A stretch of 64,000 bases of DNA from an uncultured Clostridium sp. GTDB lineage: Bacteria; Bacillota; Clostridia; TANB77; CAG-508. Each line of letters opens with the position of its first letter. Within the stretch, counting starts at the first letter, position 1. The notes under the pieces were generated by a model. That model searched no databases. It worked only from the letters and a program-made list of their open reading frames with translations, and was not told the DNA's origin. The stretch spans positions 7,683 to 71,682 of the forward strand of contig CAMNWO010000007.1 in the NCBI GenBank assembly GCA_946565805.1. Direction: 5' to 3'. The position numbers and the translations under genes were made by a program. This document shows, piece after piece, positions 5,377 through 13,862 of the stretch.

Positions 5377-5979
5377 ATGAATAAAACAATAATAAGTTTA
5401 ATTGCTATTATGACAGTAATAGCTGCTATATTTACAGCAATTGCTATATTTACGCCAAAACAAAGAGTGGAAAATGAGAAAAGTGGAGTGCAAATAGCAG
5501 AAGAAGAAATATTAGATGAGTGTACCGATGAATATGAACAAATGGAAAAGGAAGATACAGTAAAGGCTAATACACAAGAAGAAAAGACATCTCCTAATTG
5601 TTCATTAAAGATAGAAACTTATTTTTCAAAATGCGGTCATACTAAAAAAGAATATGCTAATTTGCCACAGAATTTAGTAAATTTAAGTAAACAAGAATTA
5701 GCCGAAAAATATCCAGACTATGAAATCAAAAGTTTTGAAAGCAACAATGTTACCTTATATCAAGAAAAAGAGGGAATATGTGGAGAACATTACATGGTAA
5801 AAGATAAAGAGGGACAAGTTGTCATTTATGAAATTCTAGAGGATGGTACACAAAAAGAATTAGAAGAAACAGCAATAACTACAGAATATTTACCAGAAAC
5901 AGATAAAATTAATATGAAAAACGGAATTCAAGTAAATGGAAAACAGATGTTGAACCAATTAATTGAAGATTACGAATGA
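5377..5979 (+). CDS. Membrane-anchored protein with a BofC C-terminal-like domain
   Basis: N-terminal TM helix. C-terminal pattern CGEHYMVKDKEGQVVIYE...LPETDKINMKNGIQVNGKQMLNQLIEDYE resembles BofC_C. The stop codon is the TGA of repeat element A. Confidence 0.5.
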   Translation: MNKTIISLIAIMTVIAAIFTAIAIFTPKQRVENEKSGVQIAEEEILDECTDEYEQMEKEDTVKANTQEEKTSPNCSLKIETYFSKCGHTKKEYANLPQNLVNLSKQELAEKYPDYEIKSFESNNVTLYQEKEGICGEHYMVKDKEGQVVIYEILEDGTQKELEETAITTEYLPETDKINMKNGIQVNGKQMLNQLIEDYE

Positions 5980-6081
5980 GACAAAGGGGACAGGTCTTAA
6001 CTGTCTCATTTTATATTTTTAGTAAAAATTATTTTATTTAAGAAAAAATGAGACAGTTAAGACCTGTCCCCCTTTGTCTCA
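5977..6081. repeat. Palindromic intergenic element A (two inverted ~32-nt TGAGACA..GGGGACAG..TGTCTCA units around an AT-rich spacer)
   Basis: tgagacaaaggggacaggtcttaactgtctca ... tgagacagttaagacctgtccccctttgtctca. Related copies lie at 11954, 13756, 21005 and 27848. Confidence 0.85.
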
Positions 6082-6085
6082 AAAA

Positions 6086-6115
6086 AGCCGACTCAATTTA
6101 TGAGTCGGCTTTTTG
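6086..6115 (-). terminator. Rho-independent terminator of the 6135-7595 gene
   Basis: agccgactca-attt-atgagtcggct hairpin flanked by A/T runs. An identical hairpin follows the paralog at 13724-13755. Confidence 0.7.
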
Positions 6116-6134
6116 AAGAAAAAACTATTTTTTA

Positions 6135-11956: not shown

Positions 11957-12108
11957 GACAAATGGGGACAGTCCTAGATTTGAGACAAGGGGGACAGGTC
12001 TTAACTGTCTCATTTTATATTTTTAGTGAAAATTATTTTATTTAAAAAAATGAGACAGTTAAGACCTGTCCCCCTTGTCTCAAATCTAGGACTGTGCCCT
12101 TTGTCTCA
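11954..12108. repeat. Nested palindromic element B (an A-type element inside the loop of a second TGAGACA..GGGGACAG unit)
   Basis: tgagacaaatggggacagtcctagatt[tgagacaagggggacaggtcttaactgtctca...tgagacagttaagacctgtcccccttgtctca]aatctaggactgtgccctttgtctca. Confidence 0.85.
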
Positions 12109-12241
12109 TTTTTCTCTATAGCGATTGACCTTTATGTGAATTTGTGGTAATATAATAGTGGTATTTAGTGTAAATACACAATTAAGAAAGGAGAAAAAAC
12201 TGTAACTATTAACGAAAGCAATAATTAAAAGGAGGTTTTTT

Positions 12242-13702
12242 ATGCGACCAGAACTTTTGAAGTTAACTCCAAAACGGTACAGATGTCCCTATTGTGGAGA
12301 ATGGCATCCTTGGAAAGGTATGTCCTTAGGATATTATGATAATGCTTGGTGTACAACAAGTCTATACTTCTCTCATAATCATATGGCTACTGACGAGATA
12401 GCATTCTATTTTGAAGATGATTTTTGCTATTATGAAGTGCCGTCTGTCTGCGGACGTATAAATAAGATAGAAGGTTCAATTCTAATCAAAGACATCGTAG
12501 AAAGTTCATCTAAACCTCGCGTAACTTTTCATGTAGAAGTTATTACATCGTCTACTCTAGGGAAATGTAAAGACTGCTCTGACTGTTGGGCTACTGATGT
12601 ATGTATAGCATGCATACAAAGTGACGAAGGCGATAGACATAAAGTCATTATTCCATTCGGTTTCGAGTTTGATGAAGATGAATATTTTGCAATTGTAGGC
12701 AAAAATCAGAAAGGTAAAGACAAAAAGGAGGATTCTATTATGAAAAAAGCAACAACAATTTGGGACCAGTTATACAAACACAGCCCAGAGGAAAACGTGC
12801 AGATTGCAAAAGAATGGGCAGGCAAATACAAACCTACTTTAAAGTGGGCCGTTCCGGTTGTTACCATCTATGCAGCCTACCGGATTTTGAATTCTAAAAA
12901 TTCAGGAATCACGGTAAAGAACATCGAAAAATTCAGCACTAAAAACTTAGGCTTTGCCTTTGACAGCTTAAAAGACAAAAAATCACTGAGTCATTTAATG
13001 CAGTGGGGAAAAATAACGGTAGGAGCTTATGCTGCTATGAAAGCTGTTTCGGCGATTTATAAGAACACAGATCCGAAAGAGATCTCAACGGAGCAGGTAG
13101 AGGATGGCTTGGAGAAATTAGAAGGAGTTAAAAACAAATTTGGTTTTATCCAGCCCAAAACGGAAGCATTACTCCCTGTCGCAGTTTCTGTTATCATAGT
13201 TTATATCATGACGCAGAAACCTGCATGGTTTGAAACAGTAAAGGAAAAAGCAGGCGATTTGGCGGGAGACGTTTCTTCTAAGGCGGAAGTCTATTCTGAG
13301 ATTGTAAAGCTTTTCTTAGCAGACAAACTGCACATCGACTTTGAAGATGAAGAAGAGATGCAGAAAGCAAAAAAATTCGCTCTCCTGGCAGCCATTGTAG
13401 GAGTATGTGTGCTTTTATATGGTAAAAAGGTGGTTGGCGTAAAAGACGATACAGACGATAGTAAAACATCGGCTTTCACCAACCAGATGCAGAGCTTTTT
13501 GTCCCAGGTAATCAACGTGATGAAAAAGCTGATGCCGACAGCCTTTGCAGGAATTACTGCGTGGTTAGTTAGCAAAAAGTTTTTGTCAGCAGATGAGCTT
13601 TTGGAAGATGCCTTCTTTGTAGAAGATGGTGAAGCATCAGGCGAAGAAGTCGAAGAAGCTTCTGATGAAGCAGAACACGACAATGAAGACGATGAAGAAT
13701 AA
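12242..13702 (+). CDS. Hypothetical Zn-ribbon / Cys-rich N-domain plus multi-TM protein with an acidic tail (paralog B)
   Basis: 486 aa. From about residue 160 onward nearly identical, in DNA too, to the reverse complement of 6135-7595. The N-domain has a diverged sequence but conserved Cys spacing. The promoter/RBS region 12130-12241 mirrors 7596-7700. Confidence 0.7.
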   Translation: MRPELLKLTPKRYRCPYCGEWHPWKGMSLGYYDNAWCTTSLYFSHNHMATDEIAFYFEDDFCYYEVPSVCGRINKIEGSILIKDIVESSSKPRVTFHVEVITSSTLGKCKDCSDCWATDVCIACIQSDEGDRHKVIIPFGFEFDEDEYFAIVGKNQKGKDKKEDSIMKKATTIWDQLYKHSPEENVQIAKEWAGKYKPTLKWAVPVVTIYAAYRILNSKNSGITVKNIEKFSTKNLGFAFDSLKDKKSLSHLMQWGKITVGAYAAMKAVSAIYKNTDPKEISTEQVEDGLEKLEGVKNKFGFIQPKTEALLPVAVSVIIVYIMTQKPAWFETVKEKAGDLAGDVSSKAEVYSEIVKLFLADKLHIDFEDEEEMQKAKKFALLAAIVGVCVLLYGKKVVGVKDDTDDSKTSAFTNQMQSFLSQVINVMKKLMPTAFAGITAWLVSKKFLSADELLEDAFFVEDGEASGEEVEEASDEAEHDNEDDEE

Positions 13703-13755
13703 TAAAAAATAGTTTTTTCTTCAAAAAGCCGACTCATAAATTGAGTCGGCTTTTT

Positions 13756-13862
13756 TGAGACAAAGGGGGACAGGTCTTAACTGTCTCATTTTTTTCTTAA
13801 ATAAAACAATTTTTACTAAAAATATAAAATGACACAGTTAAGACCTGTCCCCCTTTGTCTCA
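13756..13862. repeat. Palindromic intergenic element C (mirror copy of element A)
   Basis: tgagacaaagggggacaggtcttaactgtctca ... tgacacagttaagacctgtccccctttgtctca, directly after the terminator of paralog B. Confidence 0.85.

Follow-up and report, generated by a model that had tools for sequence, protein, structure and literature searches.

Domain-selective concerted evolution of two inverted paralogs in an uncultured Clostridium

The stretch of DNA considered here (the window) comprises 64,000 nucleotides (nt) of contig CAMNWO010000007.1 (assembly GCA_946565805.1), from an uncultured Clostridium species. It carries two paralogous genes, copy A and copy B, which encode proteins of 486 amino acids (aa) each and stand as an inverted pair on either side of a segment containing clpE and pgsA. 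The two copies evolve in concert over part of their length only. In the lineage of the window, B has recently donated to A a single tract of between 427 and 583 nt, while the N-terminal domains of the two proteins (the N-domains) stayed apart. It is probable that the locus as a whole reflects an old inverted duplication whose copies evolve in concert by gene conversion, with two proteins made from each gene as the result of a cistron fusion and, more tentatively, with an assembly in the membrane as the outcome.

The list of open reading frames (ORFs) bears out the two genes noted in a preliminary description of this locus, and the other factual statements made there are upheld as well (Table 1). 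The promoter and ribosome-binding region, the terminator and a palindromic element were said to be mirrored, and they do fall within a mirrored span of ~1.75 kb (5977-7728 against 12109-13865). The central ~0.6 kb, judged identical by eye, is an exact run of 583 nt when compared base by base. The substitutions described as scattered over the C-terminal part amount to 21 nt differences in gene nt 1030-1263, and the first ~160 codons have indeed diverged with the spacing of their cysteines intact. Between A and B, amino acid identity is 66.5% in residues 1-155, compared with 97% in residues 156-486; gene nt 61-465 (the N-domain) contain 83 differences, and nine cysteines (residues 15, 18, 37, 62, 70, 112, 115, 121 and 124) are common to both copies, with an additional C109 in B. 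Both genes are read outward, so that the promoter, leader and N-domain of each lie on the inner side. The exact copy A and copy B proteins are present in a public collection (P0076 and P0074, respectively), their source being an 80,498-nt contig of a metagenome-assembled genome (MAG). The G+C content of the paralog regions (window 6001-8000 and 12001-14000) is ~36%, compared with 27-30% in adjacent genes.

How did the identical blocks arise? Window A and window B were set beside the two copies of L001, an independent assembly of the same species, in a four-way comparison. In the central block (gene nt 447-1029), A and B have no differences in the window and 51 in L001, and the window sequence is separated by 7 differences from L001-B and by 46 from L001-A. 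Window A has its nearest allele in the P0081 gene, which is identical in three independent samples (L035-L037) and differs from window A at 53 sites. All but six of these (47 of 53) fall in gene nt 546-972, where window A equals its own B, and there are none in nt 8-545 or 973-1340. Copy A is therefore a P0081-type allele in which one tract, window 6624-7050 at a minimum, has been replaced by the sequence of the neighboring B. The 3′ end has likewise been homogenized in the window, where gene nt 1264-1461 have 0 differences between A and B versus 11 in L001. Other assemblies contain mosaics with different breakpoints (P0075 and P0080). The preliminary description had proposed that gene conversion keeps the constant part alike while the N-domains stay apart, and the B-to-A tract, as seen both against the P0081 allele and against L001, supports it.

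One might ask whether conversion is needed at all. If the duplication were recent, the C-terminal domains (C-domains) could simply be too young to have diverged, and the N-domains could have changed fast under positive selection. The ratio of nonsynonymous to synonymous substitution rates (dN/dS) in the N-domain is near 1, as this would predict, and a tandem pair in another species (L002) has the same look. But synonymous divergence (dS) between A and B is ~0.25 both in the N-domain and in codons 351-410, and it is zero in between. A recent duplication is excluded by these equal values on the two sides of a dS-0 block. Moreover, L001 has its 51 differences in precisely the block that is identical in the window, and the duplication is older than the split from a sister species whose housekeeping neighbors are 90-98% identical. 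An explanation by recent duplication alone is hardly credible.

A second possibility is that the assembler created the exact identity of the central and 3′ blocks by merging, or swapping paths between, paralog segments of ~90% identity, and that the real copy A keeps its own central region. The window is a contig of the short-read MAG type; the exact A protein occurs on one contig only; and the central block is a patchwork when compared with the L001 alleles (one brief A-like patch, nt 656-705, interrupts an otherwise B-like sequence). Yet a similar assembly, L001, held the two central regions apart, and 47 differences in 427 nt, or ~89% identity, lie outside the usual bubble-merging limits of similarity and length. 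With the default settings of common metagenome assemblers, such merging requires a higher similarity and a shorter length than 89% over ~430 nt. Concerted evolution of the C-domain is also seen independently, between species and in the L002 pair, and conversion at this locus does not, therefore, depend on one contig. An artifact of this kind is improbable.

The evidence from other species concerns the C-domain. In the sister species (L003), P0082 (copy A) and P0003 (copy B) have species-specific residues in common in their C-domains, which group by species, not by paralog, and C-domain dS is ~0.82-0.85 between the species versus 0.065 within the window. These comparisons show that the C-domain, and the C-domain only, evolves in concert in the sister species too. 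In the distant species L002, an independent tandem pair has 52-73% nt identity in the N-region and 93-100% in the C-region, showing that a tandem duplication has repeated the same pattern of diverged N-domains and like C-domains.

As a recombination phenomenon, this is of a known kind. The tufA and tufB genes of Salmonella and Escherichia coli are inverted duplicates that co-evolve by RecA-dependent gene conversion (PMC5485169, PMC6735719), and recombination between them can invert the intervening chromosome segment (PMC6735719). Like them, A and B are inverted paralogs that exchange nonreciprocal tracts of a few hundred nt bounded by the gene and that group by species, with inversion as a possible but costly by-product. 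The marks of tuf-type concerted evolution, namely identical blocks flanked by divergence of equal dS, an unconverted relative and grouping by species, are all found at this locus. Unlike tufA and tufB, the copies are separated by only 5.5 kb and are homogenized over just part of their length, a 400-nt domain is 20-25% diverged, and the protein is not essential machinery. What is undescribed is the gene family, the fold of its N-domain, its conserved internal start and its leader.

Table 1. Features of the paralog locus, in window coordinates
Feature	Position	Strand	Description
Copy A	6135-7595	-	486 aa; ORF list
Copy B	12242-13702	+	486 aa; ORF list
A N-domain	7131-7595	-	codons 1-155; putative Cys4 zinc-ribbon-stapled beta domain, hypervariable
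B N-domain	12242-12706	+	codons 1-155
Inverted-repeat arms	6024-7438 / 12399-13813	inverted	1415 nt, 94%
Inverted-repeat arms	7446-7728 / 12109-12391	inverted	283 nt, 86%
Inverted-repeat arms	5983-6048 / 13790-13855	inverted	66 nt, 95%
Exact A=B run 1	12158-12244 (B coordinates)	+	87 nt; leader and start
Exact A=B run 2, central block	B 12688-13270 / A 6567-7149	+ / -	583 nt; codons ~150-343
Exact A=B run 3	B 13505-13794 / A side 6043-6332	+ (B)	290 nt; 3′ end and terminator
Intrinsic terminator	B 13723-13755; A 6082-6114		inside the 3′ identical block
B promoter	12125-12153	+	sigma-A-type, TTGACC-17-TAATAT, conserved spacer TTTATGTRAA; promoter scan
A promoter	7684-7712	-	mirror of the B promoter
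B leader	12160-12241	+	P1 hairpin 12160-12179; GAAAGGAG 12186-12193 (like a stabilizing Shine-Dalgarno); AACTATTAAC; then true Shine-Dalgarno
A leader	7596-7677	-	P1 7658-7677; GAAAGGAG 7644-7651
B internal Shine-Dalgarno and start	12727-12742	+	GGAGGATTCTATTATG; ATG is codon 167
A internal Shine-Dalgarno and start	7095-7110	-	twin of the B site
Predicted B short isoform	12740-13702	+	320 aa; helical membrane-associated domain and acidic tail
Predicted A short isoform	6135-7097	-	320 aa; 96.9% aa identity to the B short isoform
Palindromic element 1	5977-6084	.	two convergent terminator-like hairpins, outer side of A
Palindromic element 2	11961-12102	.	between pgsA and the B promoter
Palindromic element 3	13753-13865	.	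outer side of B
Bracketed segment	7923-11956		285-aa membrane-anchored protein 7923-8780 (-), ClpE-like ATPase 9011-11368 (+), PgsA 11378-11956 (+); ORFs, Pfam matches

The N-domains follow another course. The preliminary description had them diversifying, but no rapid change in situ is seen between the window and L001: over nt 61-465 the two strains differ at 8 positions in A and at none in B, and A and B differ from each other at 83 sites in both strains. The alleles of the N-domain are of long standing and change little, and at least three types coexist in the population. The third, P0077, occupies the B position in contigs of the same species (L028-L031) whose flanks match the window from 13850 onward at 98.9-99.2% identity and in which the family gene adjoins the 128-aa gene and the HtrA gene that also follow B in L001. 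The gene in this position, with its third N-domain allele, is A-like from end to end (93% nt identity to A, 89% to B).

Such strains raise the possibility that the N-domain differences are kept mainly by import, and not by divergence in situ: homologous recombination in the conserved leader and C-domain would bring in complete alleles or cassettes of other strains, so that the locus would be a polymorphic cassette site flanked by palindromic elements. The occurrence of P0077 between nearly identical flanks speaks for import, and kinship among N-domains ignores position across species, both sister-species N-domains being nearer to A than to B. The palindromic elements that flank B also vary in presence among strains. 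On the other hand, the A and B N-domains have hardly changed from one strain to the other (window versus L001), the locus has no associated mobility gene, and the family is absent from collections of phages, plasmids and viral contigs. As the main cause of the differences, import is possible but rather unlikely; it complements intragenomic conversion and does not replace it.

The palindromic elements themselves are built from a 22-nt arm, GGGGACAGGTCTTAACTGTCTC, which occurs six times in the window as three hairpin pairs, with 0 occurrences expected in shuffled sequences. L001 is without the core arms of element 2; its intergenic region is ~78 nt shorter there, and the outer flanks of the element are kept. 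Element 3 is largely missing in L028, where the alignment skips from window 13753 to 13850. Related elements are present at L001 2379-2464 and 11525-11611 and, as a single arm on the inner side of A, at L003 597-618. The elements measure 110-140 nt, and every one consists of two convergent terminator-like hairpins. Differing among strains in position as well as presence, they behave like insertions of the MITE (miniature inverted-repeat transposable element) or REP (repetitive extragenic palindromic) type, and they coincide with contig breaks in the Logan assemblies. A search of Rfam returned only below-threshold models of plant and animal microRNAs, which are spurious for long hairpins, and the arm was not found in the scan of viral contigs. 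Between element 1 and the A terminator, L001 (2502-3912) and L035 (3812-5222) have a 1.5-kb insertion with a split LysR-type regulator and a 126-aa gene, and the window is without it.

When did the duplication take place, and is it real? L001 has the same layout as the window: A (-), the 285-aa gene (-), clpE (+), pgsA (+) and B (+). Outside A, it has, in order toward A, DFP, a BofC-like 200-aa gene, an extra LysR gene and the 126-aa gene, and it continues beyond B with a 128-aa gene and HtrA (-). The sister species has the same inverted layout, although its contig stops within copy A, at residue 154; its neighbor proteins are 90-98% identical to those of the window, but its B copy only 76%. 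In addition, the two sides of the locus have each been recovered separately in contigs from Logan and the European Nucleotide Archive (L028-L037). That the duplication might be an expansion artifact, as the preliminary description had allowed, is refuted by this recurrence of the layout in L001 and L003 and of both sides in L028-L037. Since the inverted layout is common to the species of the window and to L003, the duplication is older than their split. More distant relatives have a single copy, which is probably the ancestral state. In two of them (L016 and L017), it adjoins pgsA and the BofC-like gene, with the 285-aa gene nearby and, in L017, HtrA nearby as well; a family gene has thus long been resident in this neighborhood. 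No simple series of events leads step by step from the single-copy layout of L016 and L017 to the present one.

Identical inverted repeats would, as the preliminary description pointed out, permit inversion of the segment from 7.6 to 12.2 kb. Mechanically this stands, but there is no sign that inversion occurs: the window, L001, L003, L032 and L035 all have one orientation, with the gene order of the bracketed segment unchanged as well. (These five assemblies, from two species, are a small and assembly-only sample.) The most elaborate form of the idea would be a programmed switch, akin to a shufflon or a phase-variable hsdS locus, in which the 5.5-kb segment flips and thereby changes the expressed N-domain or an inner gene. 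The exact inverted repeats (583, 290 and 87 nt) offer more than enough length for recombination, and the A-like gene at the B position in some strains could be produced by an inversion with its crossover in the outermost repeats. But neither an invertase nor a tyrosine recombinase, nor any other recombinase, was found within ~10 kb in Pfam scans of the neighboring genes (304-29867), which returned ComEC, NAPRTase, LysR, DFP, ClpE, PgsA, a TraG-like protein, GlmS and others. Both copies are complete, with their own promoter, leader and N-domain, and a flip would alter no expression state. Because promoter, leader and N-domain move together with the inner segment, it would exchange only the near-identical 3′ halves. 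Nor is L028 a simple inverted isomer: its upstream sequence beyond -110 resembles that of neither A nor B, and it was rejected as such. Finally, clpE and pgsA are on the plus strand like most genes of the window, over most of which GC skew is positive; if positive skew marks the leading strand, the flipped genes would be head-on to replication.

Phase-variable hsdS loci and shufflons typically have one expressed copy and silent partial copies, usually with a dedicated recombinase, and both orientations are present in one population. The locus described here is like them in having inverted copies with conserved blocks beside variable recognition domains, and unlike them in that both copies are complete with promoters, no recombinase is present and one orientation is seen; nor is a variable segment joined to a single expressed 5′ part. 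A programmed switch is very improbable. Flipping of clpE-pgsA is better regarded as a possible by-product of the same recombination that transfers the tracts, without evident function, and inversion is probably functionless.

A second property of these genes is an internal translation start. Within each copy, the junction between the N-domain and the remainder carries an in-frame Shine-Dalgarno (SD) sequence and start of the form GGAGG-N8-ATG. The same form recurs in 18 of the 19 distinct contexts examined in the family, the nineteenth having AAGGAGA. The junction motif of the protein is KEDxTM, in which E163 is the only invariant residue of a variable linker. The Lys codon is always AAG and the Glu codon always GAG, although the residues around them vary (K or M before; D, G, A, E, V or R after), which argues for constraint on the nucleotides and not on the protein. 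The window contains 24 GGAGG-N6-10-ATG sites followed by at least 60 codons; 22 of these are ORF starts, and the only two that lie deep within genes are those of A and B. It is therefore likely, going by these sequence features, that each gene gives rise to a 486-aa protein and to a 320-aa protein without the N-domain.

Where would such an arrangement have come from? In a split version (L038), the N-domain gene ends in a stop codon, and 24 nt further on GAGGAGG-N8-ATG opens a gene for the remaining part, the payload. In L046, a stand-alone N-domain gene is followed by a terminator. Architectures with other payloads keep the KEDxTM junction. Given the split and stand-alone versions, the genes in the window would each be an N-domain cistron fused to a payload cistron that has kept its own ribosome-binding site.

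Genes that encode two in-frame isoforms include the lambda S107/S105 holin-antiholin, ClpB-93/79, SafA/C30 of Bacillus subtilis and IF2 alpha/beta. The family resembles these in having a conserved, strong SD and ATG in frame within the ORF and a predicted short form without the N-terminal domain. It differs in that a whole 166-residue domain and linker would be lost, in its probable origin by cistron fusion, and in being known from sequence alone. A genome-wide survey (bioRxiv 10.1101/520783) shows that bacteria do use in-frame internal starts, and coding regions are otherwise poor in SD-like sequences (PMC5100845). With dual-start holins and antiholins, the family has in common, at the level of sequence, a second in-frame start with its own ribosome-binding site. 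Unlike them, the proteins would be 486 and 320 aa long versus <~150 aa with starts only a few codons from each other, the neighbors are housekeeping genes with no endolysin or lysis cassette nearby, and there is no match among PHROGs, phages or viral contigs.

The preliminary description did not recognize the protein family, and profile and structure searches agree. A and B have no family match in Pfam, NCBIfam, PHROGs or PADLOC (for PADLOC, none at E ≤ 0.1), and a profile search of PDB sequences gave none either. Foldseek returned nothing below E = 0.07, whether PDB and BFVD were searched with the full-length model or PDB with that of the N-domain. No family match was obtained by tblastn of phage and plasmid records or in a scan of viral contigs, and an alignment of the N-domain found nothing significant in a collection of 5.8 billion proteins. 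None of the 73 close homologs is named, and the sole Pfam mark among them (PF12072, in P0036) covers a coiled-coil linker. A survey of 185,579 species genomes yielded only 17 loci, every one in a MAG of uncultured Clostridia or Clostridium (e.g., from chicken, rabbit and mouse gut), and a scan of metagenomes added only 7 further loci.

Modeled alone by AlphaFold2, the N-domain (residues 1-155) is beta-rich, with a pLDDT (predicted local distance difference test) score of 91 and a pTM (predicted template modeling) score of 0.87. In the full-length model, residues 155-170 form a disordered linker, residues 173-454 are helical and residues 455-486 are a disordered tail; 20 of the last 41 residues (446-486) are Asp or Glu. 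Cysteines C15, C18, C115 and C121 are invariant across the family, the second pair being of the C-x5-C type and the two pairs standing 97 residues apart, which suggests a putative Cys4 zinc site that would clamp both ends of the N-domain. Hydropathy indicates two strongly hydrophobic helices (307-323 and 378-394) and three moderately hydrophobic ones. There is no signal peptide, from which a cytoplasmic position of the N-domain is predicted, and the C-domain is presumably membrane-associated. The domains evolve very differently: omega is 0.54-1.65 in the N-domain over fourteen comparisons versus 0.09-0.23 in the C-domain, and dN/dS between A and B is 0.95 for N-domain codons 21-150.

The short zinc-ribbon membrane proteins of Firmicutes (e.g., TcaA/YvbJ-type, zinc_ribbon_2) and the zinc-binding anti-sigma (ZAS) factors similarly have an N-terminal cytoplasmic CxxC followed by membrane helices. 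Unlike those, A and B have no profile match, their Cys pairs would clamp a 155-residue beta domain without a fold match, and no sigma-factor gene is adjacent. In a profile search of 1.84 billion representative proteins, the N-domain was also found at the head of other architectures, either a soluble beta domain with Met-rich repeats or a beta domain with a related membrane domain. None of ten scanned relatives with other payloads had a significant Pfam match. In L026/L027, the family gene (7001-8563) is followed by a tandem second N-domain protein of 466 aa (8834-10234), which differs in its C-terminal part and has a leader copy to itself, and then by a 211-aa gene without a family match (10266-10901).

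The promoter and leader are also family-specific. A family promoter, TTGACT-TTTATGTAAA...TATAAT, precedes most of the family genes checked, including the split and stand-alone versions, and the motif TTGAnnTTTATGTRAA has two further matches elsewhere (L002 10399 and L012 6262). The leader, GGTATTT...AAATACAC followed by GAAAGGAG and AACTATTAAC, is present in 17 of 18 aligned sequences, and its motif is found only upstream of family genes in ~450 kb of loci. Two proposed helices, a closing stem (P1) and an inner hairpin (P2), are paired in 96% of cells, with 4 compensatory pairs; a covariation score as high as that observed was not attained in any of 500 shuffles, and slid controls score far lower. 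The clade of the window has lost the inner part of the leader (P2), leaving P1 closed by a triloop. Rfam contains no family that matches the leader. A leader peptide in the 5′ untranslated region (UTR) was considered and rejected, neither a start nor a reading frame being conserved.

Within the leader, GAAAGGAG is invariant in all 18 sequences. Its distance to the ATG is 49 nt in the window, and in 2 of the 18 an ATG follows it by 3-5 nt. As an SD-like sequence in a 5′ UTR, usually with no start codon at initiation distance, it has the sequence property of a stabilizing SD (STAB-SD). At a STAB-SD, bound 30S subunits shield the mRNA from 5′ exonuclease and thereby prolong its half-life. In the STAB-SD of Bacillus thuringiensis cry3A (PMC4113751), too, an SD-like motif without a usable start codon follows a 5′ stem-loop in the UTR. 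Unlike that case, GAAAGGAG is part of a longer, family-specific leader (P1, P2 and AACTATTAAC), and the likeness is one of sequence.

A functional link to clpE or pgsA was considered and set aside, the neighbors being different in most other species; against this, the distant L016 and L017 likewise have pgsA, the BofC-like gene, the 285-aa gene and HtrA in the vicinity. The 128-aa gene next to B and the 126-aa gene next to A in L001 were rejected as parts of the duplicated unit, since they are not homologous to each other. The former (13976-14362, +) has no family match and evolves very fast, with 36% identity to its sister-species counterpart versus 92-98% for HtrA, ClpE and PgsA. The start of the ClpE-like ATPase (9011-9130, +) has a CxxC...CxxC zinc ribbon of its own (MLCSEC...CYNCAKK), which shows no sequence relationship to the paralogs' N-domain. 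A DUF4236 gene (58-61 aa, basic, MGFSFHKRIKIG..., with a poly-Lys tail) lies ~240-300 nt upstream of the family gene in about half of the species, in genomic surroundings that are unrelated; its carriers are L004, L006-L008, L012, L015, L020-L023, L026, L027 and L038, and the window is without it. A literature search found no relevant paper on DUF4236. Elsewhere in the window, a TraG/VirD4-type coupling-protein homolog (TraG-D_C, 776 aa, 22015-24345, -) stands among housekeeping genes ~8 kb from B and may be the remnant or edge of a conjugative element. A glmS ribozyme (27533-27695, -) precedes the GlmS gene (25645-27483), and a skipping-rope RNA (42464-42544, +), a tRNA-Met (30449-30525, +) and a tRNA-Trp (42739-42813, +) are also present.

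How might these properties fit together? RecA-type homologous recombination between the inverted copies would repeatedly transfer tracts in a nonreciprocal manner. These transfers would homogenize the promoter and leader, the helical membrane-associated C-domain and the terminator. Overwriting of the N-domain, on the other hand, would be blocked by divergence or purged by selection, so that two N-domain types persist in each genome. The 486-aa form would consist of a cytoplasmic Zn(Cys4)-stapled beta domain, a disordered charged linker, a helical membrane domain and an acidic tail. A membrane assembly might then be made mostly of short subunits, a fraction of the subunits carrying the fast-evolving cytoplasmic recognition domain, and the two paralogs would provide two specificities on one common membrane module. 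This working model of a membrane assembly is put forward with low confidence.

Several points weigh against the explanation as a whole. The window comes from a metagenome assembly, in which the assembler may have swapped the central block between the paralogs, and the P0075 and P0080 mosaics are from contigs of only ~1.6 kb and could be chimeric. The presence of P0077 at the B position means that whole-allele replacement, or inversion by an outer crossover, has a part in shaping the locus besides conversion. An N-domain dN/dS of ~1 may equally mean relaxed constraint in place of diversifying selection. The membrane location and the side on which the N-domain lies are deduced from hydropathy and the missing signal peptide only, and the 320-aa isoform is a prediction from sequence features alone.

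What does the locus mean for the biology of these bacteria? It provides a clean natural case of domain-selective concerted evolution in bacteria, in which donor, recipient and tract ends can be identified. Its protein family and N-terminal fold stand outside the curated libraries and solved structures and have so far been encountered only in uncultured Clostridia of the animal gut. Comparison across the family makes it a well-supported case, at the level of sequence, of a conserved internal translation start that would have come from a cistron fusion, and the family-specific promoter and leader are a candidate for a new cis-regulatory RNA element. More tentatively, and with the odds rather against it, these genes may belong to an undescribed modular system of gut Clostridia. 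In such a system, a family promoter and STAB-SD-like leader would drive a fast-evolving Zn-stapled N-domain of novel fold, which would be made alone, as the leading cistron of a two-gene operon, or fused in frame to interchangeable membrane-active payloads with ribosome-binding sites of their own, giving long "armed" and short "bare" isoforms. The N-domain would be a specificity determinant in genetic conflict or in surveillance of the envelope, and conversion would maintain the common payload while at least two specificities are kept.

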